From a virus: a stretch of DNA of 42,940 bases. Position numbers and translations under genes: made by a program. Location: the IMG/VR virus record IMGVR_UViG_3300045988_008255; one strand, given 5' to 3'. Shown one piece after another: positions 294-40,538 of the stretch (its first letter is position 1; each line of letters begins with the position of its first letter). The notes below the pieces were generated by a model. It saw nothing but the letters and a program-made list of their open reading frames with translations, made no database searches and was not told where the DNA came from.

Positions 294-1253
294 ATGCTCG
301 ATACAATCTCCACGGCGAAGATGAGCCGCGAAGAATGGCTGGAGGAACGCAGAAAGTCCATCGGCGGGAGTGACGCGGCGGCTGTTATCGGAATGAGCCG
401 CTTTGCAAGCCCGTACACGGTATGGATGGACAAGACCGGGCGGCTTCCGGAAAAGGAAGACACAGAGGCTATGCGGATTGGCAGAGATCTCGAGGAGTAT
501 GTTGCAAAGCGTTTTGAGGAAGCGTCCGGGAAAAAGGTGCGGCGCTGCAACTACATCATTCGGAATCCCGCGTATCCGTGGGCGCACGCAGACATTGACA
601 GGCGAATTTCCAGCGAAAATGCAGGGCTGGAGTGTAAGACAACATCGACGCTTGACATTCGACAGTTCAACGGCGTGGAGTTCCCGGAACGCTACTATGC
701 ACAGTGTGTGCATTATCTGGCCGTCACCGGCCTAGACCGTTGGTATTTGGCGGTGCTCGTCTTCGGGCGCGGATTTTTTACATACACGCTGGAACGCGAC
801 GAGGCGGAAATCTCCGCGCTGATGGAGGCGGAGCAGCTTTTCTGGCGGTGCGTCGAGGAGGATACGCCGCCGGTTCCGGACGGTTCGGAGGCGACGACGG
901 ACGCGATCAGCACGGTTTATGCCGACAGCAGCGGCGAACAGCTTGATTTGTTCGGACGCGAACAGCTGTTGTCTGAGTATATGCAGATCAAACGTCAGGC
1001 GGCGGCACTGGCGGAGCGCAGCCGCGAGATCGAAAACACGATCAAGCTCGATATGGGCACGGCAGAGCGGGCCGCCTGCAACGGCTACAACGTCTCTTGG
1101 AAGCAGCAAAACCGGCAGACGTTTCAGCCCAAAGCCTTTAAAGAGGCATACCCGGATATCGATTTGGCACCGTTTTATAAAACGGTGCAGGCCCGGCCAT
1201 TCAAAATTACAGAAATCACGAAGGAGGATGGCTTGCAAAGTGTTTCCACATGA
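294..1253 (+). CDS. YqaJ/lambda-Exo-like recombination exonuclease (PD-(D/E)XK)
   Basis: 319 aa. WLEERRKSIGGSDAAAVIG and GLECKTTS motifs are typical of YqaJ-type viral exonucleases. ATG lies directly after the upstream stop. Clustered with RecT and SSB. Confidence 0.85.
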   Translation: MLDTISTAKMSREEWLEERRKSIGGSDAAAVIGMSRFASPYTVWMDKTGRLPEKEDTEAMRIGRDLEEYVAKRFEEASGKKVRRCNYIIRNPAYPWAHADIDRRISSENAGLECKTTSTLDIRQFNGVEFPERYYAQCVHYLAVTGLDRWYLAVLVFGRGFFTYTLERDEAEISALMEAEQLFWRCVEEDTPPVPDGSEATTDAISTVYADSSGEQLDLFGREQLLSEYMQIKRQAAALAERSREIENTIKLDMGTAERAACNGYNVSWKQQNRQTFQPKAFKEAYPDIDLAPFYKTVQARPFKITEITKEDGLQSVST

Positions 1254-1749
1254 TTTAACAGGGCTGACATTCGGACGCCTGACTGTAATCGAGTGCGCAG
1301 GCAAGGACATCCACCGAGAAAGCCTTTGGCGATGCAAATGCTCTTGCGGAAAGGAAACGACCGTTATCCGAAGCAATCTTCGCAACGGGAACACGCTCTC
1401 ATGCGGATGTTATGGACGAGAACGAAGGTCTGATGCAAACAAAACGCACGGTGGATCTGGCTCCCGCCTCTACCGCATCTGGAAAGCGATGCACACAAGA
1501 TGCTATAACCCTCATTTTAAAATGCATCGATATTACGGAGGCCGTGGGATCAAGATATGTGATGATTGGCTTTACAGCTACACAAGCTTTCGCGAATGGG
1601 CGTTATCAAATGGGTACACGGAAAATTTAACGATTGATCGGGTTAATCCTGACGGTAATTATTGCCCAGAGAATTGCCGCTGGGCGACAATGGCAGAGCA
1701 AAACAGGAACAAACGATGCCCTAACGGGCAAAAATTGAAGGGAGAATAA
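1228..1749 (+). CDS. AP2-like/zinc-ribbon DNA-binding protein (homing-endonuclease-associated family)
   Basis: 173 aa from ATG 1228 behind AAGGAGG. GLTFGRLTV..WRCKCSCGKETTV..SCGC ribbon, then YRIWKAMHTRCYNP..YGGRGIKICDDW..LTIDRVNPDGNYCPENCRW. I recognise this pattern from phage AP2/HNH-associated ORFs. Confidence 0.6.
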   Translation: MACKVFPHDLTGLTFGRLTVIECAGKDIHRESLWRCKCSCGKETTVIRSNLRNGNTLSCGCYGRERRSDANKTHGGSGSRLYRIWKAMHTRCYNPHFKMHRYYGGRGIKICDDWLYSYTSFREWALSNGYTENLTIDRVNPDGNYCPENCRWATMAEQNRNKRCPNGQKLKGE

Positions 1750-1752
1750 CCT

Positions 1753-2613
1753 ATGGAAGGTATCATTCAGAAGCAGACGGCTATGCAAAAAGCTCCGCAG
1801 CAAAAGCAAATGTCTGTCACGGCTCTTGTAAACAGTATGCTTGACAAAGACGGTATGCGCAAGCGGTTTGACGAGCTTCTCGGCAAGCGAACACCGCAAT
1901 TCGTTTCATCTATCGTTTCTATGGTAAACGCAGACAAAAACTTGCAGCAGGCATTTTACGAATCCCCTATGACCGTGATCCAGGCATCCCTAAAAGCGGC
2001 GATGTTTGACCTTCCGATTGACCAAAGCCTTGGATACGCCTACATCGTCCCGTTCAAGAATTATAAAAAGGATCTCGGCGCAAAAAAGATGGAAGCTACG
2101 TTTATTCTTGGCTGGAAAGGTATGCACCAGCTGGCGTTGAGAACCGGCGCATACAAGACAATCAACGTCGTCGACGTTCGAGAGGGTGAGTTGAAGAGCT
2201 ACAACCGTCTGACGGAAGAGGTCAAAATTGACTTTATAGAAGATGAGGACGCGCGCGATGCTCTGCCGATTATCGGATATGTCGGCTATTATCGGCTTGT
2301 GAACGGTGCGGAAAAGACCGTGTACATGAGTACGAAATCCATTGCGGCACACGAAAAGAAATTCCGAAAGGGCGAGTTCCAAGGAAAAGGCTGGCGCGGC
2401 GACTGGGATGCAATGGCTAGAAAGACAGTCTATCGTATTCTGATTGGGAAATGGGGCGTCATGTCCATTGACTATCAGACGCGCGGAGAGGGAGAGCAAC
2501 TGGCAGACGCGATTGCTGCGGATATTCAGGAAGAAGGTCTGATTGACGGGACAGTCGTTGACGAGAGTACCGGTGAAGCAATCGAAACGTCGGAGGTAGA
2601 AAATGCTGAATAA
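1753..2613 (+). CDS. recT: RecT-family single-strand annealing recombinase
   Basis: 286 aa. FVSSIVSMVN..SLKAAMFDLPID.SLGYAYIVPF..GWKGM core is typical of RecT. SD AAGGGAGA upstream. Confidence 0.85.
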   Translation: MEGIIQKQTAMQKAPQQKQMSVTALVNSMLDKDGMRKRFDELLGKRTPQFVSSIVSMVNADKNLQQAFYESPMTVIQASLKAAMFDLPIDQSLGYAYIVPFKNYKKDLGAKKMEATFILGWKGMHQLALRTGAYKTINVVDVREGELKSYNRLTEEVKIDFIEDEDARDALPIIGYVGYYRLVNGAEKTVYMSTKSIAAHEKKFRKGEFQGKGWRGDWDAMARKTVYRILIGKWGVMSIDYQTRGEGEQLADAIAADIQEEGLIDGTVVDESTGEAIETSEVENAE

Positions 2614-3058
2614 AATCGTCCTGATGGGCCGCCTGACCCGTGACCCGGAGCTTCGGCAGACGCAAAGCGGAAATTCTGTTGTATCCTTCACGCTTGCCTG
2701 CGACCGCGATTTCGCGGCGCAGGGCGCGGAGAAGGAAACGGACTTCGTGGATATCGTCGCATGGCGCGGCACGGCTGAGTTCGTCAGCAAGTATTTCTCC
2801 AGGGGCCGCATGGCCGTGGTGTCTGGCCGTTTGCAGATCCGCAACTGGGAAGACAAGGACGGGAACAAGCGCAAAACGGCAGAGATCGTCGCAGAAAGCG
2901 TTTATTTCGGCGACAGCAAGCGGGACGGGCAGAATGCTTCTGCCGCTGCACCGGCATCTTCGGAGTTCAGGCCGCTGCCGAGCACAACGCCGGTTCCGTT
3001 CTCTGCGCCGGATATGCCGCAGATGGAGATCGGCGACGAAAACGAGCTTCCGTTCTGA
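2603..3058 (+). CDS. ssb: Single-stranded DNA-binding protein
   Basis: 151 aa. MLNKIVLMGRLTRDPELRQTQSGNSVVSFTLA OB-fold N-terminus and acidic C-terminal tip DENELPF. Confidence 0.9.
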   Translation: MLNKIVLMGRLTRDPELRQTQSGNSVVSFTLACDRDFAAQGAEKETDFVDIVAWRGTAEFVSKYFSRGRMAVVSGRLQIRNWEDKDGNKRKTAEIVAESVYFGDSKRDGQNASAAAPASSEFRPLPSTTPVPFSAPDMPQMEIGDENELPF

Positions 3059-3068
3059 GGGCCGACGG

Positions 3069-3785
3069 ATGGGAGATAAAAAGGAATACGTCAAGCTGTG
3101 GCTGAGTTACAGGAGCTATTTCGAGGCGTACAGTGCTGCTGAGGTGGGGCGCTTGGTGCTGGCTGCGATGGATTATCGCGAGTCGGGAGCAGAGCCAGAG
3201 TTCAGCGGGAGTGAACGTTTCATTTGGCCTGCGATTCGACGGGACATTGACGAATCCGTAGCGGCGCAAAAAGCCGTCTCCGCGTCCAGAAGTGAGGCAG
3301 GAAAGCAGGGCGGTCGTCCTGAATCCGAAAAAGCAAATGCTTTTGACGAAAGCAACGAAAAGCAAAAAAAGCAAATGCTTTCCGAGGAAAGCAAAAAAAG
3401 CTATGGACAAAGGAAAAGGACAAAGGAAAAGGACATGGACAGTATTCTTTCCCCCCTTCCCCCCACACTGCGCGAAGCAGTTGAAAAATGGGTGGCGTAC
3501 AAGGGAGAACGACGGGAGGAGTATAAGCCTGTTGGCCTGCAAAGCCTTGTCACACAGATCACGAAAGCCGCAGAGGAATATGACGAGGCTACAATGATCG
3601 ACGTGATAACCCGCTCTATGGCCGCAAATTACAAGGGGATCGTGTTTGACTGGCTGAAAGAGGCCAGCACACGCCCTGCGGCGCTTGGCCGCGCAGCAAA
3701 GCCCGGCTACGGCGTGCAGCAGCACCACGACGAACTTAATCCGATGGAACGCGCAGCCGTGGACAGGCTGCTGGAAGGAGGATAA
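3069..3785 (+). CDS. Replication-organizer-like protein (function tentative)
   Basis: 238 aa from ATG 3069. The longer track ORF from 2640 overlaps ssb in another frame. Two globular halves are joined by a K/E/S-rich linker that carries DNA iterons. Follows ssb. Confidence 0.4.
   Translation: MGDKKEYVKLWLSYRSYFEAYSAAEVGRLVLAAMDYRESGAEPEFSGSERFIWPAIRRDIDESVAAQKAVSASRSEAGKQGGRPESEKANAFDESNEKQKKQMLSEESKKSYGQRKRTKEKDMDSILSPLPPTLREAVEKWVAYKGERREEYKPVGLQSLVTQITKAAEEYDEATMIDVITRSMAANYKGIVFDWLKEASTRPAALGRAAKPGYGVQQHHDELNPMERAAVDRLLEGG
3301..3440. repeat. Iteron-like array (AAAGCAA x6, inverted repeat AAAAGCA-aa-TGCTTTT x2, 13-bp tandem GGACAAAGGAAAA x2): candidate origin
   Basis: Read directly. AAAGCAA-type units sit near 3330, 3348, 3357, 3368, 3387 and 3396. 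Tandem 13-mers at 3405-3417 and 3418-3430. Locally AT-rich, inside the linker of the 3069..3785 gene. Confidence 0.5.
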
Positions 3786-3788
3786 AGC

Positions 3789-3959
3789 ATGAGATTTGTT
3801 TGCGATTGCTGCAACGATCTGACCAACATCGAGGCAGACCGGATGGAGATCCAGGGCGACAAGCTGATGGTGTACAGCCGCGGGCGGCTGGTCTACGTTG
3901 CGGATCTGGGCCAGATCATGCTGGCGAAGCTGACGCCGGGGAGGGATGAGGCAAGATGA
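3789..3959 (+). CDS. Small CxCC protein, hypothetical
   Basis: 56 aa (MRFVCDCCNDLTNIE...), below the track cutoff. ATG lies 3 nt after the upstream stop, and its stop overlaps the next ATG (ATGA at 3956). Confidence 0.4.
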   Translation: MRFVCDCCNDLTNIEADRMEIQGDKLMVYSRGRLVYVADLGQIMLAKLTPGRDEAR

Positions 3960-5083
3960 AAGAGAATGTGCTGGAGCGAAATGCAAGGCTGGATACCGAA
4001 CGGAAGATTGCGGATTTTCGAGTAAAACAGCAGATGGATTATGCGTTCAAGGTGAAATACGCCAAAATCCGCGCATGGGAATTCTACGATCACCCAGACG
4101 TTGCAGGTAGCTGCTACGTAGCTGTCGGCGGGCTGGATTCCATTACGCTGCTCCTGTTCCTTCGCAGCATTGGTATTGATGTGCCTGCCATCTCGGTATC
4201 GTCGCTTGAGGATAAAAGCATTCAGCTGATTCACAAGCAACTCGGCGTGAAGCCGCTGAAACCGCTGAAAAGCAAAGTGGAAGTGCTGCGGGAGTACGGA
4301 TGGCCGGTGATCTCCAAGGAAGTTGCGGGGAAAATCTCGCTTTTGCAAAATCCAAGCGAGAAAAACGCAACGGTACGCCATGCGATCATCACTGGGGAAA
4401 CAGGGGCTTACGGCGGGTTCCGCACGGGGACGCGGATGAAGCTGGCGCAAAAATGGCTGGAGATCTTCGGCGGATACGAAAATGAGAATGAAGGCGTTAG
4501 CTACAAAACGCCGGATTTTCTCGTATCGGATAAGTGCTGCTATTACCTGAAAGAAAAGCCTTGCAGCGATTATGCCAAAGAAACCGGAAGCTTCCCGTAT
4601 ATGGGCCTGATGGCGTCCGAAGGAGGGCGCAGGCAGAAAGCGTTGATGATGAACGGGTGCAACTACATATCACCTGGAACGAAACGCAGCTGTCCATTCG
4701 CGATTTTTTCGCGGCAGGATCTTTTGCAGCTTGCGCTGGATTTGCAGGTTCCGGTGCCGGAAATCTACGGAGAAATCGTGCGCGACACAGACGGAACACT
4801 CAGGACGACAAAAGCACAGAGAACCGGGTGCTCCATGTGCGGATTCGGCGTGCACATGGAAAAACGCCCACACCGGTTCGACCGGCTGTGGGAGCGGAAT
4901 CCAAAGGAGTGGGAAATGTGGATGAATCACGTAATGCAGGATGATCGCGGGAACTGGTACGGCTGGGGCCGTGTGCTGGACTATATCGGCGTCGAGTGGC
5001 GGGATCCGGAAGCCGCGCTGTTAAATCCGGATGAACTGCCGGGACAAATGGTTCTTGAAGGAATGGAGGAAGACGCGCTATGA
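3956..5083 (+). CDS. PAPS-reductase-family PP-loop ATP pyrophosphatase
   Basis: 375 aa. PP-loop-like VAVGGLDSITLL, then CCYYLKEKP, MASEGGRRQ and a C-terminal RTGCSMCGFG cysteine cluster, as in phage/plasmid PAPS reductase-like proteins. Confidence 0.75.
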   Translation: MKENVLERNARLDTERKIADFRVKQQMDYAFKVKYAKIRAWEFYDHPDVAGSCYVAVGGLDSITLLLFLRSIGIDVPAISVSSLEDKSIQLIHKQLGVKPLKPLKSKVEVLREYGWPVISKEVAGKISLLQNPSEKNATVRHAIITGETGAYGGFRTGTRMKLAQKWLEIFGGYENENEGVSYKTPDFLVSDKCCYYLKEKPCSDYAKETGSFPYMGLMASEGGRRQKALMMNGCNYISPGTKRSCPFAIFSRQDLLQLALDLQVPVPEIYGEIVRDTDGTLRTTKAQRTGCSMCGFGVHMEKRPHRFDRLWERNPKEWEMWMNHVMQDDRGNWYGWGRVLDYIGVEWRDPEAALLNPDELPGQMVLEGMEEDAL

Positions 5084-29630: not shown

Positions 29631-30059
29631 ATGCGGGATAGAATCGGCACAAACGATCTCGCAAACGGCGCTATCCGGTACGGGGTATATGACGCGAGCG
29701 GTAACCGCCTGCGCTATGAATGGCTTCGCCCGGAGGACGAGCCGCTGGAAGCTGGAACGCCGCTCACGGCCGGGAACCTGCTGACGGCACAGAGCGCTGC
29801 AAAGATCTGGCGAGCGGGCGACGCACCGGCGAACCCGATGGTAAATGAGGCGCTTGCAAAGCTGGCAGAGCCGAACTATCACGTTGGTGATATCCTCACG
29901 ACTGTCCGCGTCCTCGCTGCCCCGTGGCACGCGTGTGATGGCTCAACCTTCGATCAGGCTGCATACCCGGCCCTCTACGCAGCCCTCGGCGGCACGACGC
30001 TGCCGACGATCAGCTATTCCAGCGATACCACCACCTATATCAAAATGGCGGACGATTAG
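29631..30059 (+). CDS. Short tail-fibre paralogue (N-terminal 120 aa homologous to 28045 gene)
   Basis: 142 aa. NGAIRYGVY..G..L.YE.......P.E.GTPL.A.NLL...AAK.W......P...VN.AL.KL.....VGDI....R.....W..CDG aligns with the preceding gene. Confidence 0.6.
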   Translation: MRDRIGTNDLANGAIRYGVYDASGNRLRYEWLRPEDEPLEAGTPLTAGNLLTAQSAAKIWRAGDAPANPMVNEALAKLAEPNYHVGDILTTVRVLAAPWHACDGSTFDQAAYPALYAALGGTTLPTISYSSDTTTYIKMADD

Positions 30060-30091
30060 CCCGGCAAAATAAAAGAGAAAGGTACGGAAAA

Positions 30092-30436
30092 ATGGACACC
30101 AAAACCATCATCGTCACCCTTGTCTGCGCCGTGCTCGGCTCGTCCGCGCTTACGGCGGTAGTGAACGCCGTCGTAAGCGCGATACAAAAAAAGCGCGGCA
30201 AGGCCACATCGCAGGATGAGCATCTCGGCGAGATTGACAAAAAGCTCGACAAGATGCAGACGCATCAGAACGAGCAGTATCTGGCAATCCTCCGCCTCAC
30301 GATCATGAGCGAGGAAATGCCAATGGCCGAGCGGCTGATCGCCGGAGAGAAGTATAAAAAAATGGGCGGGAACGGCGACGTGAAAAAATTCCTGCACCAG
30401 CTGGAGGCGCAATGCGGACACAGTAATGGAGTTTAG
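30092..30436 (+). CDS. N-terminally membrane-anchored coiled-coil protein (lysis-cassette associated)
   Basis: 114 aa. TM IIVTLVCAVLGSSALTAVVNAVVSAI followed by a charged helical tail. Confidence 0.4.
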   Translation: MDTKTIIVTLVCAVLGSSALTAVVNAVVSAIQKKRGKATSQDEHLGEIDKKLDKMQTHQNEQYLAILRLTIMSEEMPMAERLIAGEKYKKMGGNGDVKKFLHQLEAQCGHSNGV

Positions 30437-30683
30437 CAAGAAGTGGCTGATTTGCAGCGCGCTTGTCAGCCTCGCGCTTATCATCGCCTGCGCGGCAGGC
30501 GCAGACCTGATGGAGATCACGCTTGCGGTGCTGGCCGAAACAACGGCCTCCAGCGGCTTTTACCTCTGGAAGGCAAAGAACGAGAACCGCGCGAAGTACG
30601 CGCAGAAGTACATGGATAAATGGGCCGAGAAATACGGCCCGGAAGCGGCAGCACGCATCGCGGAGATCGTGCTGAAAGATTGA
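30426..30683 (+). CDS. Two-TM small membrane protein, holin candidate
   Basis: 85 aa. WLICSALVSLALIIACAA and ITLAVLAETTASSGFYLW hydrophobic segments, basic C-tail. Confidence 0.45.
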   Translation: MEFSKKWLICSALVSLALIIACAAGADLMEITLAVLAETTASSGFYLWKAKNENRAKYAQKYMDKWAEKYGPEAAARIAEIVLKD

Positions 30684-30696
30684 AAGGAGCATACAT

Positions 30697-31005
30697 ATGG
30701 ACTACACGCAAATTATCTCGGCAGTGATCGCGCTCATCAGCGCGCTCGTTTCGGCATTTTTGATCCCGTGGCTCAAAACCAAGATCGACGCGGACAAGCT
30801 GCAAACGCTCCGCACTTACGTTGAGATCGGCGTAAAGGCGGCGGAGCAGCTGTACACCGCGACGGACGGCGCGGCGAAAAAGGCGTATGTCGCGAACTTC
30901 CTCGCCGAGAAGGGCATTCAATTTGATGTGGAAACGATCGATAAGCTGATCGAGGCCGCCGTGCTGCAGCTGCATCACGAGCTGTACGGGAGTGAGAGGG
31001 CATGA
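30697..31005 (+). CDS. Holin, LL-H family-like
   Basis: 102 aa. Single N-terminal TM IISAVIALISALVSAFLIPWL, then YVEIGVKAAEQ...KKAYV..FL...GI....IDKLIEAAV, typical of Holin_LLH. Confidence 0.65.
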   Translation: MDYTQIISAVIALISALVSAFLIPWLKTKIDADKLQTLRTYVEIGVKAAEQLYTATDGAAKKAYVANFLAEKGIQFDVETIDKLIEAAVLQLHHELYGSERA

Positions 31006-31712
31006 GCATCAAAATTGGGCAGGCCAGCCTCGGCGAAACCGGAGGACGCAACCAGCAGCCCGGCAACCAGAATGGGCGGGAGCTGAATATCTCTAACTGG
31101 TACAATGGCCGCTGGCTCGGTGTCCTGCGCTATAAGAACCGTAAAAAGGCCGAGCGGGCCGCGCAGACGTGCGAGGCGGCCATTAAAAACCGGAATATCG
31201 GTTACGACATGAGCGACCGGAACACGGCGTATGAGGCCGCCAGAGCCGTCCAGTGGGACGTGAGCAAGATCACAAAGCCCGTGGAGACGGACTGCTCCGC
31301 GCTCATGATGCTCTGCGCCGTGGCCGCAGGCTGCGCGTCGGTCGAAGCACTCTACCGTCGGCAGGGCAACAGCTGCACGACATACTGCATGCTGCACGAT
31401 TGGCCAGCAACGGGAGATTTTGTGCTGCTGACCGGCAGCAAGTATCTGACGACGGACGCCAATCTCCTGCGCGGCGACGTACTGGTAAGCGAGGGCCATA
31501 CGGTCATGGCACTCGAAGATGGAAAAAATGCAGAGGAGGAAACCGAAATGGTAGAAAAAAGCAAGATCATCGTGGACGGCAAGGAAGTCGCCGTTGAACG
31601 CATCCTGAAAGACGGAACGAACTACGTCAAGGTGCGCGATCTGGCCGCAGCGCTGGATCTCGAAGTGAGCAACAAGGGCAATATCGCTGTGCTGAATCAC
31701 AAGGAAAAGTAA
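31002..31712 (+). CDS. Endolysin: cysteine-type peptidoglycan hydrolase (NlpC/P60 or Amidase_5-like) plus Cu-amine-oxidase-N-like wall-binding domain
   Basis: 236 aa. IGYDMSDRN, catalytic-looking DCSALMM and EGHTVMAL. C-terminal VDGKEVAVERILKDGTNYVKVRDLAAALDLEV stalk-domain motif. Confidence 0.7.
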   Translation: MSIKIGQASLGETGGRNQQPGNQNGRELNISNWYNGRWLGVLRYKNRKKAERAAQTCEAAIKNRNIGYDMSDRNTAYEAARAVQWDVSKITKPVETDCSALMMLCAVAAGCASVEALYRRQGNSCTTYCMLHDWPATGDFVLLTGSKYLTTDANLLRGDVLVSEGHTVMALEDGKNAEEETEMVEKSKIIVDGKEVAVERILKDGTNYVKVRDLAAALDLEVSNKGNIAVLNHKEK

Positions 31713-31725
31713 GGAGGCGGGGCCT

Positions 31726-31974
31726 ATGTCGCCGCAGGCGCGGGCCAAGCTGCCGCCGGAGCTGGGCCGCCTGACCCGCAAGGACATGGAGGCCGTGATC
31801 TATCAGGCCAATCTTGGCCGGGAGAATGAGAAGATCGCGCACCTTTACTTCGTGGACAAGCTCCCGCAAGTGGACGTTGCAACAGAATTGTATCTTGGCC
31901 GCGCCACGGTACAGCGACGCCTGCCGGAGATCATGGCGTGGATGAAGGCTGCGTCCGGCAGTCTTCCAAACTGA
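31726..31974 (+). CDS. Small sigma-70 region-4-like HTH regulator
   Basis: 82 aa. IAHLYFVDKLPQVDVATELYLGRATVQRRLPEIMAWM resembles an r4 HTH. SD AAGGAGG. Confidence 0.45.
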   Translation: MSPQARAKLPPELGRLTRKDMEAVIYQANLGRENEKIAHLYFVDKLPQVDVATELYLGRATVQRRLPEIMAWMKAASGSLPN

Positions 31975-32023
31975 GCGGAAATGATGCACAAGTGATACGC
32001 AGCTGAGGCACATCAAAACGCAA

Positions 32024-32070
32024 AAAAGCCCATACTGGACACATCAAAGGAGTGTTCGGTATGGGCTTTT
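32024..32070 (+). promoter_or_regulatory. 12-bp-stem hairpin with A-tract/T-tract flanks: terminator-like structure enclosing the SD and start codon of the next gene
   Basis: AAAAGCCCATAC (32024-32035) pairs perfectly with GTATGGGCTTTT (32059-32070). The loop holds AAAGGAG, ATG 32061 lies in the 3' arm, and TTCTTATTT follows. Confidence 0.55.
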
Positions 32071-32444
32071 CTTATTTCAATCCAAATCCCGCTGGGCAGA
32101 AGGTCGGGGACTGCACCGTCCGGGCTATCGCAAAGGCGACCGGGAAGAGCTGGGACGAGGTGTATATCGGCCTGTGCCTGCAGGGGCTCATTATGGGCGA
32201 TCTGCCGAGCGCGAACAGTGTATGGGGGGCGTATCTCCGGCAGCAGGGCTTTACCCGGAACGTAATCCCGAACACGTGCCCGGACTGCTATACCGTCGCG
32301 GATTTCTGCGCAGATCATCCGCGCAGCGTGTATGTGCTGGCGTTATCAAGCCACGTTGTGTGCGTGGAGGATGGGACGTATTTTGACACGTGGGATTCTG
32401 GGAGTGAAATTCCACTGTTTTATTGGGCAAAGGAGGAAGCATGA
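32061..32444 (+). CDS. Hypothetical protein with papain-like Cys/His/Asp pattern
   Basis: 127 aa from ATG 32061 (track start 32052 is GTG). VGDCTVRAIAKATG ... ALSSHVVCVEDGTYFDTWDSG. Confidence 0.5.
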   Translation: MGFSYFNPNPAGQKVGDCTVRAIAKATGKSWDEVYIGLCLQGLIMGDLPSANSVWGAYLRQQGFTRNVIPNTCPDCYTVADFCADHPRSVYVLALSSHVVCVEDGTYFDTWDSGSEIPLFYWAKEEA

Positions 32445-32914
32445 TGTTTGGACAACAGCCGTATGTGTATCAGCAGCCGATTTACAATCAGTCGCCCATG
32501 CCGCAGATGCAGGAGCCGCAGATGCAGATGCGTCCGCAGTATCAGCCCGCGCCGCAGATGCCGACTTATCAGCCGCAGCCACAGCAGCCGCAAAACCAGT
32601 CGATCATCTGGATCCCGAACGAACAGGCGGCAAACGACTTTATTGTCGCGCCCAACAACGCAGTAACGCTTTGGGATATGAACGCGCCGGTCGTGTATGT
32701 GAAAAAGGCCGATGCAAGCGGAAAGCCGAGCATGACAACGTATGATCTTGTGGAGCGCGCACAGACCGTTATAACGCCCACAGCGGCCCGAAGGGACATG
32801 AGCGAGGAATATGTGACCCGCAAGGAGTTCGACGAGCTTGTAGCCAAGCTGACGGCTCCCAGCGTAAGACCGACGCGCAAGACAAAGGAGGCAGACAATG
32901 AACCCACTGTTTAA
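32441..32914 (+). CDS. Hypothetical protein, Q/P/M-rich N-terminus plus small globular domain
   Basis: 157 aa from ATG 32441 after AGGAGG. The first ~52 aa are almost only Q, P, M and Y, followed by IIWIPNEQAANDFIVAPNNAVTLWDMNAPVVYVKKAD. Confidence 0.55.
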   Translation: MMFGQQPYVYQQPIYNQSPMPQMQEPQMQMRPQYQPAPQMPTYQPQPQQPQNQSIIWIPNEQAANDFIVAPNNAVTLWDMNAPVVYVKKADASGKPSMTTYDLVERAQTVITPTAARRDMSEEYVTRKEFDELVAKLTAPSVRPTRKTKEADNEPTV

Positions 32915-33113
32915 TGCTCTGGGCGGCGGGCAAATGCCCGGCCAGATCGGCCAGTTTCAGCAGCTGGTGCAGCAGTTCCGGCAATTCCAGAGCGCATTTA
33001 AGGGGAATCCGAAAGCAGAGGTTGAAAAGCTTGTGCAGTCGGGCCAGATATCGCAGCAGCAGTTAAATCAGCTGCAACAGGTGGCAAGCCAGTTTCAGCA
33101 GCTTCTTGGATAA
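32898..33113 (+). CDS. Hypothetical Q-rich helical protein
   Basis: 71 aa, about 30 percent Gln (QFQQLVQQFRQFQ...QQQLNQLQQVASQFQQLL). SD AAGGAGG. Confidence 0.55.
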   Translation: MNPLFNALGGGQMPGQIGQFQQLVQQFRQFQSAFKGNPKAEVEKLVQSGQISQQQLNQLQQVASQFQQLLG

Positions 33114-33175
33114 CTTAGATTTCAATTCGTGCGCACGATTGAGATAAATTTCAAAATCTACGAAAGGAGAAAACT

Positions 33176-33997
33176 ATGAGTTTGAATGGCGATGGTATTC
33201 CTATGAACATGCCTGTTGTTCCGGCTGGCACGAACAACGGTAATGGATGGGGAGGCTTTGGCGGCGATAACGGCTGGTGGATTATTCTGTTCTTCATTGT
33301 TCTGATGGGGTGGAATCGGAACGGTTGGGGCGGCAATAATGGCAGCGGCGCTGCGGACAACTATGTTCTTGCAAGTGACTTTGCTACGCTTCAGAGGCAG
33401 ATTGACAGCGCGGCGTCCACACTCGAGCGTAAGGGCGAAATTACCCAGCAGGGGCTTTGCGACGGATTTTACGCAATGAACACTACGTTGCTGAACGGTT
33501 TCGCCGGTGTCAATCAGAACATGAACACTGGCTTCCAGTCCGCCGAGCTTTCCCGTTGCAATCAGCAGGCGGCGCTCATGCAGCAGCTTAACGCGATGCA
33601 GATGCAGGCGGCGAACTGCTGCTGCGAAAACCGCGCTTCAATCGCCCAGGTGCGCTACGACATGGCGACGCAGGCATGCGACACCCGCAACACCGTGCAG
33701 AACACCACGCGCGACATCATCGACGCGATGAACTGCGGCTTCCGCAGCATCGACCAGCGTCTGACGGCGCAGGAGCTTGCGGCGAAGGACGCGAAGATCG
33801 CCGAGCAGAACCAGCAGCTCTTTGTTGCGCAGCTTGCGGCAAGCCAGAACGCTCAGACGCTCGATCTGCGTAACTATGTGAGCGGGCAGTTGGCATATTA
33901 CAACCCGCGCCCTGTTCCGGCATTCAGCGTTCCGGCCCCGTACCAGTACGCAGGATGCAACAGCGGTTACAACTACGGCTGCGGCAACTGCGCGTAA
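33176..33997 (+). CDS. Hypothetical G/N/W-rich, Q/N coiled-coil, Cys-rich protein with short hydrophobic segment
   Basis: 273 aa. GNGWGGFGGDNGWWIILFFIVLMGWNRNGWGGNNG, then a Q/N-rich helical region with 10 Cys including ANCCCENR and the C-terminal GCNSGYNYGCGNCA. SD AAAGGAGA. Confidence 0.6.
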   Translation: MSLNGDGIPMNMPVVPAGTNNGNGWGGFGGDNGWWIILFFIVLMGWNRNGWGGNNGSGAADNYVLASDFATLQRQIDSAASTLERKGEITQQGLCDGFYAMNTTLLNGFAGVNQNMNTGFQSAELSRCNQQAALMQQLNAMQMQAANCCCENRASIAQVRYDMATQACDTRNTVQNTTRDIIDAMNCGFRSIDQRLTAQELAAKDAKIAEQNQQLFVAQLAASQNAQTLDLRNYVSGQLAYYNPRPVPAFSVPAPYQYAGCNSGYNYGCGNCA

Positions 33998-34071
33998 CAA
34001 CTCCACATCGTAGAGCTTTTTCGTGGCCTCACGAAAATGGTCGGCCCCCATTGCCGATACTCGATAGCAAC

Positions 34072-34106
34072 GCGGCGGGGCAATCGTCCCGCCGCTGTAT
34101 TTTTTA
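34072..34106 (+). terminator. Rho-independent terminator
   Basis: GCGGCGGG-gcaatcgt-CCCGCCGC followed by TGTATTTTTTAT. Confidence 0.75.
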
Positions 34107-34122
34107 TGAAAGGAATGATTTT

Positions 34123-34347
34123 ATGGCAACATATAAGGAACTCAAGAAGAAATTCATCGATCACCTGATGGGCGTGGATCTGTACAAGATGAACATCACG
34201 GATCTCTATACATACGCCTGTATCCTGAAAACGGTGGACGAAATGGAGCAGCCGAGCTGCGCAGAGGCGATGAAGACGGCGATGGAGCCGATTTTGAACT
34301 ACTGCAAAGCAGGCAATTCGGGAAGCGGGGTGTTTGGGATTGGCTGA
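34123..34347 (+). CDS. Hypothetical small protein
   Basis: 74 aa from ATG 34123. Helical, 3 Cys, G/S-rich C-terminus. Confidence 0.45.
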   Translation: MATYKELKKKFIDHLMGVDLYKMNITDLYTYACILKTVDEMEQPSCAEAMKTAMEPILNYCKAGNSGSGVFGIG

Positions 34348-34762
34348 GTTTACAAATTCCAACGTCGTCGGCGTCGCCGCCGGGCAGAACGTCCCTCTGA
34401 TCTCCACGGCAGCTTGCGGAAAGCCGTGCATCGTACATCGCGAAGGAAGCGGGCTCGTTACGCTGCGCGGGCTTACGCAGCAATGCAAGGCGAAGTTCCG
34501 CGTATCCTTTGGCGCGAATATCGCCGTACCTACAGGCGGAACAGTAGGTGCCATTACCGCTGCGCTCGCAATCAACGGCGAACCTCTGAGCAGCGCCACA
34601 GCGACCGTAACCCCTGCGGCTGTTGAGAACTATTTCAACATCTTCGTTTCCACATTCGTGGAAGTCCCGCGTGGCTGCTGCCTGACTGTAGCGGCGAAGA
34701 ACACCAGCGCGCAGGCAGTAAGTTTCGCAAATAGCAATATGATCGTCGAGCGCGTATCGTGA
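34334..34762 (+). CDS. Hypothetical all-beta protein, BclA-C-terminal/C1q-like in pattern (tentative); TTG start
   Basis: 142 aa. There is no ATG in the ORF before its end, so TTG 34334 or 34340 must be the start. Alternating beta pattern ...AALAINGEPLSSATATV...NIFVSTFVEVPRGCCLTVAAKNTS... Confidence 0.45.
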   Translation: MGLAEFTNSNVVGVAAGQNVPLISTAACGKPCIVHREGSGLVTLRGLTQQCKAKFRVSFGANIAVPTGGTVGAITAALAINGEPLSSATATVTPAAVENYFNIFVSTFVEVPRGCCLTVAAKNTSAQAVSFANSNMIVERVS

Positions 34763-34776
34763 AAGGAGGATGCAAT

Positions 34777-35148
34777 ATGTACGATTTGAGAAACCTGCGT
34801 GAAATGCTCTGCAAAGAGCTGGACGAAATCGCCGACAAGCGCGAAATGTCTGCGGGCGATCTGGACGCGATCCAGAAGCTGACAAGCTCCATCAAGAATA
34901 CCTACAAGATCGAGACGGCTGAAGACGGCGGCTATTCCCGCGACGGCGAGTGGGAAGCGGATATGCGCGGCACATATGGACGCGGAAGTTCATACCGTGG
35001 GCGCCGCCGCGACGCAATGGGCCGCTACAGCCGCACAGACGCCCGCGAGCATATGCATGCGCAGCTGGAGGATATGATGCGCGACGCGGACGACGATAAA
35101 ACCCGTGACGCGATCCGCCGCTGCATGGAGCAGATCGAGCGGGCATAA
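34777..35148 (+). CDS. Hypothetical charged helical protein (GGYS / RYSR motifs)
   Basis: 123 aa from ATG 34777 after AAAGGAGGA. KLTSSIKNTYKIE...GGYSRDG...GRYSR...RRCMEQIE resembles a recurring Firmicutes hypothetical family. Confidence 0.55.
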   Translation: MYDLRNLREMLCKELDEIADKREMSAGDLDAIQKLTSSIKNTYKIETAEDGGYSRDGEWEADMRGTYGRGSSYRGRRRDAMGRYSRTDAREHMHAQLEDMMRDADDDKTRDAIRRCMEQIERA

Positions 35149-35160
35149 GGAGAGCGCAAT

Positions 35161-35508
35161 ATGTTGGATGCAGCCGAAATCCGGAAAGAGATTGCTCGCC
35201 TGGAATATGAGGAATCCGACTATAAGAATTACGCTAAGCTTGCGGATCTGTACGTGATCCGCAAGCAGATGCAGGAAGAGGAACGGGGCGACGGCGGTAG
35301 GTATGTGGGTTACTACTCCGGCGCTCCCGCCCCTGTGACCGCAGAACCGGCTACCGTGGGCGAGTACGGGGACAGTGAGTTTTTGCTTGCGGTAGCTGGG
35401 AAAGACCCGGCAAAGGCTTGGGCGGTCGTTGATGAACTTATGGACACATTATCGCTTGTGAACCGAAAAGTCTATGATTCTATGCTTCGGAAAATAAAGT
35501 CCATGTAG
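35161..35508 (+). CDS. Hypothetical protein
   Basis: 115 aa. SD AAGGAGAG. DSEFLLAVAGKDPAKAWAVVDELMDTL motif. Confidence 0.55.
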   Translation: MLDAAEIRKEIARLEYEESDYKNYAKLADLYVIRKQMQEEERGDGGRYVGYYSGAPAPVTAEPATVGEYGDSEFLLAVAGKDPAKAWAVVDELMDTLSLVNRKVYDSMLRKIKSM

Positions 35509-35546
35509 CAAAAAAATAGGGGAGTCCCCTCGCATTGCGCTGAATC

Positions 35547-35568
35547 TGTAGCATACAATGTAGCATAC
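35547..35568 (+). repeat. Direct repeats TGTAGCATAC x2: putative integrase arm-type sites (P arm)
   Basis: Copies at 35547-35556 and 35559-35568. The same 10-mer recurs at 35809-35818 on the other side of the core. Confidence 0.55.
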
Positions 35569-35648
35569 GGGAAATGATTTTATGTTACAGAGCGTGTCAT
35601 AACGTGATTTTTCGCTTTTTGAAAATACGCAGAAAATGGGGCGAAAAG

Positions 35649-35696
35649 CATAAAAAAGTACCGATTTTAGCTTTAAAACAGCTAAAATCGGTACTT
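35649..35696 (-). terminator. Rho-independent terminator immediately 3' of the tRNA-derived core (minus strand)
   Basis: Perfect 16-bp stem AAGTACCGATTTTAGC / GCTAAAATCGGTACTT (35656-35671 / 35681-35696) with a T-run on the minus strand. Confidence 0.75.
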
Positions 35697-35761
35697 TGGC
35701 GCGGAAGGAGAGATTTGAACTCTCGCGCGCTTTTTAGACGCCTACTCCCTTAGCAGGGGAG
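35697..35761 (-). other. attP core: 3' ~65 nt of a tRNA-Ser(GCU) gene (anticodon arm, long variable arm, T arm, acceptor 3' strand, CCA); no D arm or 5' acceptor strand
   Basis: Minus strand reads CTCCC-CTGCTAA-GGGAG ... GAGAG-TTCAAAT-CTCTC-CTTCCGC-G-CCA. The upstream sequence cannot form a D arm or acceptor stem. Confidence 0.7.
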
Positions 35762-35796
35762 AAAAAACCATTGAAAACACTGGGGAAATTGGCATT

Positions 35797-35823: not shown

Positions 35824-36927
35824 TCACTCTGGCGATTCGTTTTGCAACTGATTTACGGCATCGACCATGCCTTTCATGTCCGGGTGTACATACCGTTGGG
35901 TAGTCGTTATCTTCGTGTGGCGCATGATTTCCTTGATCGTAAACGGGTCGATATTTTTCATCGCGAGGGCTGTAGCGGTTGTATGGCGGCATGAGTAAGG
36001 TGGTAGCTTTTGCACTCCGGCAAGCTCCAAACACTCATAATATCTCTTGTAAAAATTATCTTTGTTTATGCAGCAGATATTTCCGACGCGCGATTTGCTT
36101 TCTTCGCATAGTTCATGCAGCACCGGCGCAACGAAATCCGGGAAGACCATAGGCGTTTCCTTCCGCTTCTTTGTCTTTATGCCGCCTCGGACGATCTCAT
36201 TCTTTTCAAAGTCAATCATATCTTTCTTGAGCTTCAGAAGCTCACCGGGCATCATGCCGGTATAAATCATCGTTAAAATAAACCCAACGAAGTGGTCTTT
36301 TGCATACGCTTCCCATAGCTTTTTTACGTCGGCGTCGGTAAACGGTTCCGGCGATTTCTCTTCCAATTCCGGAAGCTTTATGTACTTTGCAAGATTCACG
36401 GTTGTCTGCTTTTCTGCGATTGCGAGGTTATAACAGTGGGAAAGGACGGTTTTCATATCTTTCCGTGTGTAATAGGTGCTGGCGTTGCGGTCGATAACAT
36501 CCTGTATCTGCGCGATGGTAAGCGCGTCTATCTCACGGTCGGCGATTTCTCTCATGCGCTCGAAAGCCTTTTCCGCCGCTCCCTGACGATCAGCCGATAA
36601 GGACAGATAATCCCCACGCAGATATGTTTTGTAGTATTCTCTGAGAGTGGGGATTCGCTGCTCTTCCTTCGGAGGGTTTGCTGCATATTGGAGCGCGGCA
36701 CGCTTTGACGTAAAGCCTCCCTTTGTCTTCATCTTTTGATGGAGTTTGCCGTTTTCGTCAAGGTACGTCTTTTCAGTCCACCGGGCAGTCCACGTTTTCC
36801 CACGCTGGTAGGCGCTTCCCTGCCCGTTCCCGCGTGTCCGGTTTCGCCGCGCTTCCTGTTTTTTTCCGCACCAGCAACAGTAGGGCGCGCCGTCTGGGAT
36901 TTCTTTTTTACACTTGATGCACTCCAT
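35824..36927 (-). CDS. int: Tyrosine integrase with N-terminal zinc ribbon
   Basis: 367 aa from ATG 36927 (SD GGAGG; track start 36939 is GTG). CIKCKK..CCWCG ribbon. Catalytic-region motifs SCRHTTATAL and MRHTKITTTQRYVH. Confidence 0.9.
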   Translation of the reverse strand: MECIKCKKEIPDGAPYCCWCGKKQEARRNRTRGNGQGSAYQRGKTWTARWTEKTYLDENGKLHQKMKTKGGFTSKRAALQYAANPPKEEQRIPTLREYYKTYLRGDYLSLSADRQGAAEKAFERMREIADREIDALTIAQIQDVIDRNASTYYTRKDMKTVLSHCYNLAIAEKQTTVNLAKYIKLPELEEKSPEPFTDADVKKLWEAYAKDHFVGFILTMIYTGMMPGELLKLKKDMIDFEKNEIVRGGIKTKKRKETPMVFPDFVAPVLHELCEESKSRVGNICCINKDNFYKRYYECLELAGVQKLPPYSCRHTTATALAMKNIDPFTIKEIMRHTKITTTQRYVHPDMKGMVDAVNQLQNESPE

Positions 36928-37483
36928 GCTTCCCTCCACGTTCTTTTCGGATCGCGTAGAAAGTAATTGCCGAAGCCAGCGCTGAACCTACGATCAGGGC
37001 AATGCAAACCCATGCAGCTACGGACAAATCTCCATCGCGAATGAGGCCTGCGCTCCGACTCTGCGCATCCGTCACAAGGCAGGCAATCAGGGAAAAGGAG
37101 AGCAGCATACAAAACAGGGCGAGGACGTAACACATTGTATGTGTAGACTTTATCTGTGCGCTTTGCGCGGCCGCTGTTGCCTCCAGCTTGGCGTTTTCAA
37201 GCTCGACATGATGGATCTGCTTGGTCAGCTTTTCCGGGCTTCCGACGCGATTTTCAAGGCCGAACAGCTCGTCGAGCGACAACCCGAGCGTTTTGCATAG
37301 CGCAGCCGAGTTGTAAAGCCGTGGATCCGCTTGTGTTCCAGCGTATAATCGGCTCACGGCAGAGAAGGAAACGCCGGACTCGTTCGACAGCTCCTCCAAC
37401 GTCATCCCGCTTGCATCTTTTGCCCTTCTGATCTTCCCCTGATACGCGCCGATAAACGGCGCGAGATCCTGTATTGCGGACAT
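36908..37483 (-). CDS. Membrane-anchored XRE-family HTH regulator (two C-terminal TM helices)
   Basis: 191 aa. MTLEELSNESGVSFSAVSRLYAG HTH, coiled-coil linker, TMs CYVLALFCMLLSFSLIACLV and AAWVCIALIVGSALASAITFYAI. Overlaps the int start by 20 nt. Confidence 0.75.
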   Translation of the reverse strand: MSAIQDLAPFIGAYQGKIRRAKDASGMTLEELSNESGVSFSAVSRLYAGTQADPRLYNSAALCKTLGLSLDELFGLENRVGSPEKLTKQIHHVELENAKLEATAAAQSAQIKSTHTMCYVLALFCMLLSFSLIACLVTDAQSRSAGLIRDGDLSVAAWVCIALIVGSALASAITFYAIRKERGGKHGVHQV

Positions 37484-40240: not shown

Positions 40241-40481
40241 CAATAAATTTCAAAAGTTGACTGCGGCGAAAAGAAAAGCCGCCCGTGGTTCGTTCACGAG
40301 CGGGTTTCCCCAGAGTTGTTTACCAGAACGCGCTGCACAGGATGGTCGTCTGCATTACTTTGTATCCGTCCGAATTGGTAGAGTTCTTTCCACCGGCTCG
40401 GCAATGCCATCCTGACACAAAACGAACTTACGCTTCTATGACGCGCCGCTCACTTTGGCAGTTCTGGCGCTGCCCCTTGCC

Positions 40482-40538
40482 CTAACGCATCACGCCGTTT
40501 CTTTGGTCTGGAACTGGCAAGTTCAAAAGTTTGGTCAT
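40482..40538 (-). CDS. SD-led 18-codon ORF (MTKLLNLPVPDQRNGVMR)
   Basis: AGGAGG (40552-40547) lies 8 nt before ATG 40538, with TAG at 40484-40482. About 30 nt downstream of the leftward promoter at 40578-40607. Confidence 0.25.
   Translation of the reverse strand: MTKLLNLPVPDQRNGVMR

Follow-up and report, generated by a model that had tools for sequence, protein, structure and literature searches.

A colinear seven-gene module in siphophages of Oscillospiraceae and Lachnospiraceae, with a possible role in the lytic cycle

In IMG/VR virus record IMGVR_UViG_3300045988_008255, a stretch of viral DNA of 42,940 nucleotides (nt) that is called the window below, eight small genes (o1 to o8) lie between the lysis genes and the phage attachment site attP. 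Seven of these, all except o5, are one colinear unit in a very large group of siphophages of the Oscillospiraceae and Lachnospiraceae. The module they form is of no known kind, a verdict that was reached by exclusion and with structure models covering two of the seven proteins. An earlier annotation made from the sequence alone (the original prediction) had taken the genes for a cargo cassette with which a prophage builds or remodels a spore or surface layer of its host. We propose instead that the region is a conserved, vertically stable phage module that would act in the lytic cycle and is not host-directed cargo, a reading that we put, taken as a whole, at an even chance. That the module serves the phage in lytic growth, as a distal part of the late or lysis operon in which a terminator element sets or regulates o6-o8 relative to o1-o4, appears to us rather probable.

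The families of o4 and o6, each with thousands of 90%-identity clusters from gut metagenomes, place the module among the commoner uncharacterised phage gene blocks, and its carriers are phages of Faecalibacterium-, Gemmiger- and Butyrivibrio-type hosts. If a role in the lytic cycle is true, these phages need an undescribed step beyond virion building, holin and endolysin; if the genes are expressed in lysogens, the biology of abundant gut commensals would be altered. The module offers a defined target of seven genes and a defined RNA element, with the Butyrivibrio phage Ceridwen as a cultured carrier of the whole, and it indicates that the slot adjoining attP is not always one for cargo.

Gene order and genomic contexts

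A species-representative genome collection, several phage records of GenBank and metagenomic contigs supplied the 42 loci compared. In about 40 independent phage or prophage loci the order o1-o2-o3-o4-o6-o7-o8 is colinear, and it is kept almost everywhere, with o4-o6 as the most widely retained pair; spacing is similar across loci as well (o1, o2 and o3 overlap; median distances are 58 nt from o3 to o4, 123 nt from o4 to o6, and 14 nt from o6 to o7 as from o7 to o8). Order and spacing being kept, homologues of o2 to o8 are therefore not scattered singly. All contexts are phages, prophages or prophage remnants. The cassette had been predicted to hold eight genes; seven travel together, and o5 is optional, with homologues in about 6 of about 45 loci (MT835551 and Dulem virus 33 are without it) and neither a PHROG nor a Pfam match. 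The genes are more than chance reading frames, and an assortment of eight unrelated morons, also considered, is ruled out by the synteny.

Cargo slots are normally variable where the phage backbone is constant. In nine distinct contexts that share an identical endolysin, the whole module is unchanged (9 of 9), and in these same nine (L063-L071, at about 400-4050, corresponding to about 25.3-28.0 kb of the window) the tail-fibre region before the Collar-domain fibre gene is mosaic, its cassettes being swapped (LRR_5, DUF6273, CBM_5_12, Phage_tail_C). The junction between o1 and the small gene that precedes it (sig) is an insertion hot spot, at which some relatives hold 1-2 kb of unrelated genes on either strand, including genes for zinc-ribbon proteins (Table 1). 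It is this junction, rather than the module, that behaves as the variable cargo slot.

Among the carriers is a phage of Butyrivibrio, a non-spore-forming genus. This phage, Ceridwen, has the complete module and a sig-like gene between its endolysin and a region with an XRE regulator and an antirepressor, and it has no integrase. The paper describing Ceridwen reports only lytic growth on Butyrivibrio fibrisolvens and judges the phage probably virulent (PMC7372960).

Other carriers have the module at different places. Dulem virus 35 has it inside the head genes, with a MuF/gp7-like minor capsid gene on one side and the genes for scaffold and major capsid protein on the other; an XhlA-like gene, another membrane-protein gene and a sigma-r4-like helix-turn-helix gene go with it, and the endolysin of this phage is away from the module and adjoins the integrase. 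In Dulem virus 39 the module follows the replication genes and an integrase, and in some 43-kb elements (L060 and L061, 1-8104) it comes directly after the gene for a 3768-amino-acid (aa) LPD23/LPD3 'polyvalent protein' and not after lysis genes. The positions in Dulem viruses 35 and 39 do not agree with the claim that the genes are cargo of the attachment-site slot.

The same positions bear on the possibility that the products are virion-associated accessories, either a decoration or fibre (with o6 as head and o4 as stalk) or internal proteins ejected with the DNA. Besides the setting amid the head genes of Dulem virus 35 and the adjacency to the polyvalent protein, TNF/C1q-like domains such as that predicted for o6 are common as phage fibre tips, and internal virion proteins are typically small, charged and of low complexity. 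The usual place of the module is nevertheless after the lysis genes and not amid structural genes; o6 consists of the domain alone and lacks a region for attachment, and no stalk was found among the 150 best representatives of its family; no fibre protein has a hydrophobic core like that of o4; and none of the genes falls in a PHROG structural category. We consider a place in the virion unlikely on this balance.

HNH homing endonuclease genes are found inside the module twice independently, in unrelated phages (Table 1), which fits a sequence common to co-infecting phages. An extra 264-aa gene in Ceridwen, considered as a possible member of the module, was rejected on being recognised as an HNH endonuclease. 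In an Oscillospiraceae contig (L059), a decayed module (a truncated o4, then o6 and o7) lies by an ISL3 transposase fragment and cobW genes; it looks like a decayed prophage in the same host neighbourhood as the integration site of the window phage.

In the window, all eight open reading frames of the original prediction are present with the compositions described, at the predicted coordinates or a few bases off. The three-unit layout with a strong terminator is likewise upheld: the blocks o1-o3, o4 and o5-o8 are separated by gaps of 62 nt and 125 nt, with a terminator-like hairpin in the second, and the arrangement is kept across loci. The start codon of o6 is probably a TTG at 34340, which gives a protein of 140 aa. 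Upstream of o1 lie the lysis genes, comprising three small membrane-protein genes (one of them a Phage_holin_6_1 holin) and an ELLD endolysin, followed by sig, which is syntenic in 14 loci and which the module usually follows. Family matches of the sig product are weak (KORA at an expectation value (E) of 0.012; the transcriptional regulator phrog_36 at E 0.004), and its counterpart in Dulem virus 35 matches Sigma70_r4 at E 8e-4, under the family cut-off.

On the other side, the attP core is part of a tRNA-Ser gene, and the integrase gene lies beyond it. In integrated copies, found on contigs with an identical o4, the module is the last phage block, followed by tRNA-Ser(GCT) and host cobW genes; the integrated form thus ends at tRNA-Ser(GCT), and the statement that the genes lie next to attP is therefore correct. 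Faecalibacterium phage Aster carries the same attP core. A perfect 18-bp inverted repeat abuts the tRNA-Ser fragment of attP, and the terminator scan flags a - strand terminator-like site there. In the early or lysogeny-side region of the window, the Rfam FuFi-1 RNA (RF02986) is matched with 101.8 bits (E 4e-21).

Table 1. Positions of the module genes, of associated elements in the window, and of related features in other loci (locus numbers precede the positions where these are not in the window)
Feature	Position	Strand	Length	Description
sig	31726-31974	+	82 aa	helix-turn-helix protein resembling sigma-70 region 4; 13 nt past the endolysin stop
Repeats and -10-like box before o1	31982-32036	+		three direct repeats
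o1	32061-32444	+	127 aa	putative minimal papain-like Cys-His-Asp protein
CPDC motif of o1	32277-32288	+		residues 73-76
o2	32441-32914	+	157 aa	Q/P/Y-rich head
o3	32898-33113	+	71 aa	28% Gln
Hairpin and -10-like box in o3-o4 spacer	33127-33149	+		small GC palindrome
o4	33176-33997	+	273 aa	Cys-rich, Q/N-rich
Three-hairpin RNA element	34018-34103	+		o4-o6 spacer; P1, P2, P3
Terminator-like hairpin (P3)	34072-34095	+		followed by a T-tract
o5	34123-34347	+	74 aa	optional gene between terminator and o6
o6	34334 or 34340-34762	+	140-142 aa	predicted TNF/C1q/BclA-C-like jelly roll
o7	34777-35148	+	123 aa	R/G/Y/S-rich centre
o8	35161-35508	+	115 aa	charged
Inverted repeat	35655-35697			abuts the attP tRNA-Ser fragment
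attP core	35697-35766	-		3' part of tRNA-Ser gene
Integrase	35824-36939	-
FuFi-1 RNA	40273-40489	-
sig-o1 insertion	L001 4400-6080
sig-o1 insertion	L026 3750-5760
sig-o1 insertion	L049 4620-5690
HNH insertion	L002 6969-7520	-		Dulem virus 33, between o3 and o4
HNH insertion	L054 8518-9312	+		Ceridwen, between o6 and o7
Decayed module	L059 8933-10818			truncated o4, then o6 and o7
Lone o1 homologue	L058 4971-5366			Tsamsa gp15
Lone o1 homologue	L057 4483-4872			GBK2_35
Lone o1 homologue				Lak phage records

Recoding, transcription signals and a structured RNA

Four low-GC relatives (L048, L050, L051 and L052) use TAG as a codon for Gln, and in-frame TAG codons occur in their o2, o3, o4, o6 and o7 where homologues have Gln (for example, at L051 7137-8423). 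The share of TAG among Gln codons in L051 is 0.54 in the tail genes, 0.30 in the module, 0.15 in early genes and 0 in the adjacent ImmA-like gene; the corresponding values in L050 are 0.36, 0.15, 0.16 and 0. Proteins whose genes contain recoded stops cannot be made before the code has changed, and integrases avoid such stops (10.1101/2021.08.26.457843). We therefore argue that the module of the recoded phages is not translated in a standard-code lysogen; the signal is only moderate, because early genes also carry TAG.

A scan of the window found no + strand terminator-like site between the holins and the end of o4, the first such site lying behind o4, and a sigma-70 consensus scan over positions 30000-35788 found no + strand promoter-like site. 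Therefore, o1-o4 could be transcribed by read-through from the late or lysis operon.

Two short non-coding regions precede o1 and o4. Upstream of o1, three 11-nt direct repeats (TGATGCACAAG, TGATACGCAGC and TGAGGCACATC) are followed by a -10-like CATACT about 24 nt before the ATG; the repeat pattern recurs together with a CCCATACTGGACAC block in L001, L012, L018, L021, L025, L026, L049, L060 and L061, and other loci have TGACCC-type repeats at the same site. By its sequence, this region may be a regulator-binding site plus promoter. In the o3-o4 spacer, a small GC palindrome or hairpin (TCGTGCGCACGA) is followed by a -10-like GATAAAT (or TATAAA) about 26 nt before the ATG of o4. The hairpin site is kept in most loci: its sequence differs and its self-complementarity stays (CGTGGCCACG, CCGGCCGG, TGCGGCCGCA and AACGG..CCGTT).

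The spacer between o4 and o6 holds a newly seen structured RNA that ends in an intrinsic terminator and is maintained by covariation. It consists of three hairpins, of which P1 is variable in sequence, P2 has the form UCGGC...GCCGA, and P3 is a GC-rich intrinsic terminator with a U-run; conserved linkers have the sequences AAUG(G/U)U and GAUACU. The covariance model R1, derived from 25 copies, scores 82.4 bits in the window (E 1e-14) and finds one strong + strand match per module locus, always in the o4-o6 spacer and including four loci outside the build set, with nothing else in 718 kb. Across 33 copies, 95.3% of cells are paired, compared with 39-59% when the partners are slid, and compensatory changes occur in 18 of 23 pairs, values that were reached by none of 500 shuffles; within P3, paired cells make up 98.5%, and both sides have changed in 8 of 10 pairs. 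The alignment behind these figures was fitted to the model, which favours structure, and an unfitted MAFFT alignment gives 92.3% pairing and 13 compensatory pairs. A search of Rfam gave no match to the element at the gathering threshold, nor a noteworthy one at E <= 5. The R1 element was not found in Ceridwen or in the low-GC relatives, in which o4 and o6 are nearly contiguous or the spacer differs.

Most copies would also allow a different pairing, in which the loop and 3' arm of P2 join the 5' arm of P3; it is 87% paired (31-55% when slid), with only 3 compensatory pairs and with a signal that comes partly from the similarity of the two 5' arms. By its sequence the element could plausibly be an attenuator. 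A leader peptide beginning with the conserved AUG ahead of P2 was considered and rejected, since reading frames are not kept between loci; so was a shared operator upstream of o4 and o6, since the two hairpins vary independently within a locus.

The encoded proteins and the roles they might allow

None of the eight proteins has a usable family in Pfam, NCBIfam or PADLOC scans, and PHROGs places six of them in families that are all of 'unknown function'. The PADLOC scan returned only chance-level matches (E 0.004 to 0.04, 10-14 bits), in agreement with the prediction that no defence, ATPase or nuclease function is recognisable. Literature on these PHROG families, on BclA/TNF-like prophage proteins and on Faecalibacterium prophage cargo yielded no description of the module, and the earlier view of it as an undescribed system stands.

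The Cys-rich protein o4 (phrog_16490, E 2.5e-41) has more than 7889 homologues, and the identical protein is found on 214 contigs. Its N-terminus, rich in G, N and W, surrounds a hydrophobic core some 13 residues long, with Trp and Gly on its flanks; the Q/N-rich region that follows is probably a coiled coil; and towards the C-terminus come a Pro-rich stretch and a Cys-rich tail, GCNSGYNYGCGNC. The ten cysteines that had been noted, including CCC and the GCNSGYNYGCGNC tail, are all there, and conserved ones are at 95, 148-150 (the CCC), 168, 269 and 272, all but that at 95 being nearly invariant. A profile search against the PDB found nothing significant for o4, the top matches (E about 0.15-0.3, a lead only) including an RNA methyltransferase-domain protein and many chains of influenza HA2.

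Such an architecture would suit a lysis-linked membrane device, in which o4 acts in the manner of a spanin or a class I fusion protein and disrupts or remodels the envelope after holin and endolysin, with the other products as helpers. The module comes directly after holin and endolysin with no + strand terminator between, an XhlA-like gene and another membrane-protein gene accompany it in Dulem virus 35, and the o4 profile resembles the fusion-peptide and coiled-coil region of HA2, weakly and without significance (E about 0.3). The hosts of the module, however, are monoderm Firmicutes and so offer no outer membrane for fusion; a lipoprotein partner is not encoded; the similarity to HA2 is probably compositional; and o1, o2, o3 and o6 are left unexplained. 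A device of this kind overlaps with the role that we prefer and does not exclude it, and we regard it as quite unlikely.

The fold of o6 (phrog_20016, E 2e-56) bears out the predicted resemblance to BclA C-terminal and C1q-like domains. Its AlphaFold2 (AF2) model, with a predicted local distance difference test score (pLDDT) of 81, is an all-beta jelly roll of nine strands, for which Foldseek matches EDA-A1, F-BclA, BxpB, ExsF, BclA and C1QL1 at E 1e-6 to 1e-4 and template-modelling scores (TM) of 0.6-0.76; the first five lie at E about 1e-6 to 1e-5. In the viral structure library BFVD, the closest entries are phage proteins of about 135-145 aa that likewise stand alone, some of them bearing the name 'BclA protein'. 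Homologues of o6 form 6525 clusters at 90% identity, which are about 80% identical, and 677 clusters at 50%; no fusion to a stalk occurs among the best 150 of the 677 representatives (72-196 aa). The protein itself has no Pfam match, and PDB sequence and profile searches found nothing significant for it, while a distant member of its family matches the full length of Pfam BclA_C (PF18573) at E 7e-7, with 29.6 bits against a cut-off of 38. Judged by its predicted fold, o6 is of the TNF/C1q/BclA-C class, without the stalk and the spore context that define BclA-type proteins.

The original prediction was of a lysogenic-conversion module, one that builds or remodels the spore coat, exosporium or cell surface of the lysogen. 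In its favour, the o6 fold is common to BclA, BxpB and ExsF, and the distant relative has its sub-threshold BclA_C match; the Cys-, Q- and Tyr/Arg-rich compositions resemble those of coat proteins; the module adjoins attP and attR; host contigs encode a protein with SpoIIE_N and SpoIIE as well as SLH-domain proteins; and o1 and o4 may have promoters of their own. Yet the module is invariant and not patchy (9 of 9 contexts), lies among head genes in Dulem virus 35, has TAG codons in recoded relatives, and is complete in Ceridwen, which is without integrase and was seen only in lytic growth, on a non-spore-forming Butyrivibrio. The named carriers Gemmiger and Subdoligranulum are also described as non-spore-formers. 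Among the eight proteins there is no Pfam or NCBIfam match to spore-coat or exosporium families (ExsY/CotY, BxpB, GerQ/Tgl, YjcZ), and a membrane or export signal is present in o4 only. The claim of the original prediction is not supported on these grounds, and we give it little probability.

The protein o1 (phrog_3754, E 1e-29) had been described as having a papain-like Cys/His/Asp pattern, and this description holds. It has 1178 homologues. C18, H98, D109, C73 and C76 are invariant (Cys18, His98 and Asp109 over 44 sequences), and in the AF2 model (pLDDT 94.4) C18 opens a helix (18-27), H98 precedes a strand (99-103) and D109 ends another (106-109). This layout, read along the chain of the model, fits a putative minimal papain-like enzyme. 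Searches of Pfam and NCBIfam returned nothing for o1 at E <= 0.01, PDB sequence and profile searches nothing significant, and Foldseek weak, generic matches only (Josephin, USP and Tae4, all at E >= 0.2, the best at E 0.21 and TM 0.49). The protein also has a conserved CPDC motif just ahead of a helix, which from its sequence could be a redox or metal site; its alignment with the CPxC active-site stretch of glutaredoxin is weak and non-significant (E about 1), a lead only.

Homologues of o1 also occur alone, without the module, in Tsamsa-like Bacillus phages, Geobacillus phage GBK2 and Lak megaphages (Table 1). The Tsamsa homologue belongs to an early region, where a kinase gene and an ocr-like anti-restriction gene are close by, and o1-type papain-like proteins may have an independent role, possibly in anti-defence. 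A conflict role of this sort would fit a further possibility, that the module is expressed by the prophage for superinfection exclusion or protection, with anchored o4 and its partners blocking the entry of phage DNA or adsorption. The integrase and repressor sit across attP and o4 has a hydrophobic anchor, as such a system might. We nonetheless think it improbable: PADLOC gives no match, seven genes are many for an exclusion system, thousands of phages share o6 at about 80% identity (unusual for arms-race genes), and the in-frame TAG codons and the presence of the module in Ceridwen speak against it as well.

The remaining proteins are small and of distinctive composition. The o2 protein (phrog_21718, E 2e-29) has a head of about 50 aa, rich in Q, P and Y (a Q/P/M-rich head had been predicted, and a Q/P-rich one is present), followed by a small conserved domain, a helical tail and an acidic end; the family alignment gives the domain motif IWV.GE..A..Y.VAP...V.LWD...P..Y.K.ADASG.P. 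Searches of the PDB and Pfam found no relative of o2, and a member-by-member Pfam scan gave scattered chance matches. The overlap of o2 with both o1 and o3 suggests translational coupling. The o3 protein (phrog_22984, E 3e-21), with 27 distinct homologues among the loci, has a conserved F.G(D/N)PK turn and is presumed helical, as described earlier; its Gln content, predicted at 30%, was measured at 28%. For o2, o3, o7 and o8 alike, no relatives were detected beyond the families that they themselves form.

Both of the predicted motifs GGYS and RYSR are in o7 (phrog_28802, E 3e-8; 30 homologues, that of Dulem virus 35 at E 2e-56), where charged N- and C-termini flank the R/G/Y/S-rich centre (GGYSRDG, GRYSR). 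PDB and Pfam searches found no relative of o7, and a Pfam scan of individual members gave chance matches only. For o8, which is presumed helical from the earlier description and has no family match in Pfam, PHROGs or NCBIfam, 19 homologues were found, every one directly 3' of o7; it has a YS.AP.P-type centre and a conserved C-terminal MDELMDTL..VN.R.Y.SV(M/L)RK.

Proposed mechanism and comparison with known systems

Several observations weigh against a module of the lytic cycle. Its timing is deduced from position, recoding and one non-temperate carrier, and the virulence of that carrier, Ceridwen, is a prediction for a phage with genes for an XRE regulator and an antirepressor. Most loci have the module as their final block ahead of attP and the integrase, which is the classic lysogenic-conversion slot, and host contigs of the window phage encode a SpoIIE-type protein. 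The TAG share of the module equals that of the early genes in L050 and is intermediate in L051, and early genes carry TAG too. Conserved -10-like boxes and repeats stand upstream of o1 and o4, and these could be autonomous promoters active in lysogens. Finally, the hydrophobic core of o4 is only about 13 residues long, and o6 is without a signal peptide.

Under the lytic-cycle reading, we can sketch how the products might work together. The o4 protein would be held in or on the membrane by its Trp-flanked hydrophobic core and would oligomerise through the Q/N-rich coiled coil, the CCC and the C-terminal cysteines. A presumed trimer of o6 would dock on o4, yielding a split version of 'stalk plus TNF-like head'; the stalk-plus-TNF-head design occurs in TNF ligands, C1q and BclA, and ExsF and BxpB trimers bind a fibre partner through one of its peptides in a similar way. 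The Gln-rich o2 and o3 might be cleaved or cross-linked by o1. The o7 and o8 proteins would be accessory or regulatory, the R/G/Y/S-rich centre of o7 being a candidate RNA binder that acts on the terminator element. Such an assembly might serve a late step at the envelope or linked to lysis, belong to the virion as an accessory, or be set free at lysis. This mechanism as a whole (anchored o4, docked o6 trimer, processing by o1, accessory o7 and o8) is tentative and, in our view, less likely than not, and we would be equally cautious about its summary as an undescribed assembly, an anchored o4 coil capped by an o6 trimer, matured by o1 and with stoichiometry set via the RNA, with which thousands of Clostridia phages of the human gut might carry out a late step outside the textbook lytic cycle.

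Several parts of the module can be set beside a known system. The o4-o6 element shares with intrinsic terminators and attenuators a GC-rich hairpin with a U-run, two upstream hairpins and a possible, weakly supported alternative pairing, and differs from known attenuators in having no Rfam family, no conserved leader peptide and no known ligand or binding protein. With the papain-like clan CA peptidases and minimal transglutaminases such as Bacillus Tgl, o1 has in common a Cys that opens a helix, with His and Asp at later strands, and just as Tgl has the Q-rich substrate GerQ, o1 neighbours the Gln-rich o2 and o3. By sequence or fold it nevertheless joins none of these families (the best match being Josephin, E 0.2, TM 0.5); their known members are larger than the 127-aa o1, and homologues of o1 are also solitary in unrelated phages.

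BxpB and ExsF, of the Bacillus exosporium and F-ENA fibres, are like o6 in being standalone domains of about 140 aa with no signal peptide (TM 0.6-0.75), whereas BclA has a collagen-like stalk, which is absent from o6 and from the 150 best representatives of the o6 family. Unlike the exosporium proteins, o6 is encoded by phages, including a phage of a non-sporulating host, and the genes that accompany it resemble none of ExsY/CotY, BclA and the F-Anchor protein.

With spanins (Rz/Rz1) and class I viral fusion proteins, o4 shares an N-terminal hydrophobic segment, a long, probably helical region, conserved cysteines that would suit intermolecular links, and a gene placed after the lysis genes. 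Spanins, however, belong to diderm hosts and have a lipoprotein partner, and the module is found in hosts without an outer membrane and has no lipoprotein gene; the likeness to HA2 (E about 0.3, non-significant) is one of analogy only. The lysis accessories of Firmicute prophages (PBSX XepA, SPbeta YomS and XhlA) are likewise extra genes that go with holin and endolysin, and the roles of such lysis-cassette accessories are described as poorly understood (PMC6834076). XepA and YomS are pentameric, and the module differs from them in having seven genes with different predicted folds and no sequence relation that was found.

Moron cassettes come closest in appearance, sharing with the module the position between lysis genes and attP, small genes of non-phage-like composition and an internal terminator; judged by what marks lysogenic conversion, the module has the position and lacks the patchiness. 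In contrast to such cassettes, it is non-variable, is carried by a phage without integrase, occupies other positions in other phages, and in the recoded relatives would be untranslatable under the standard code.

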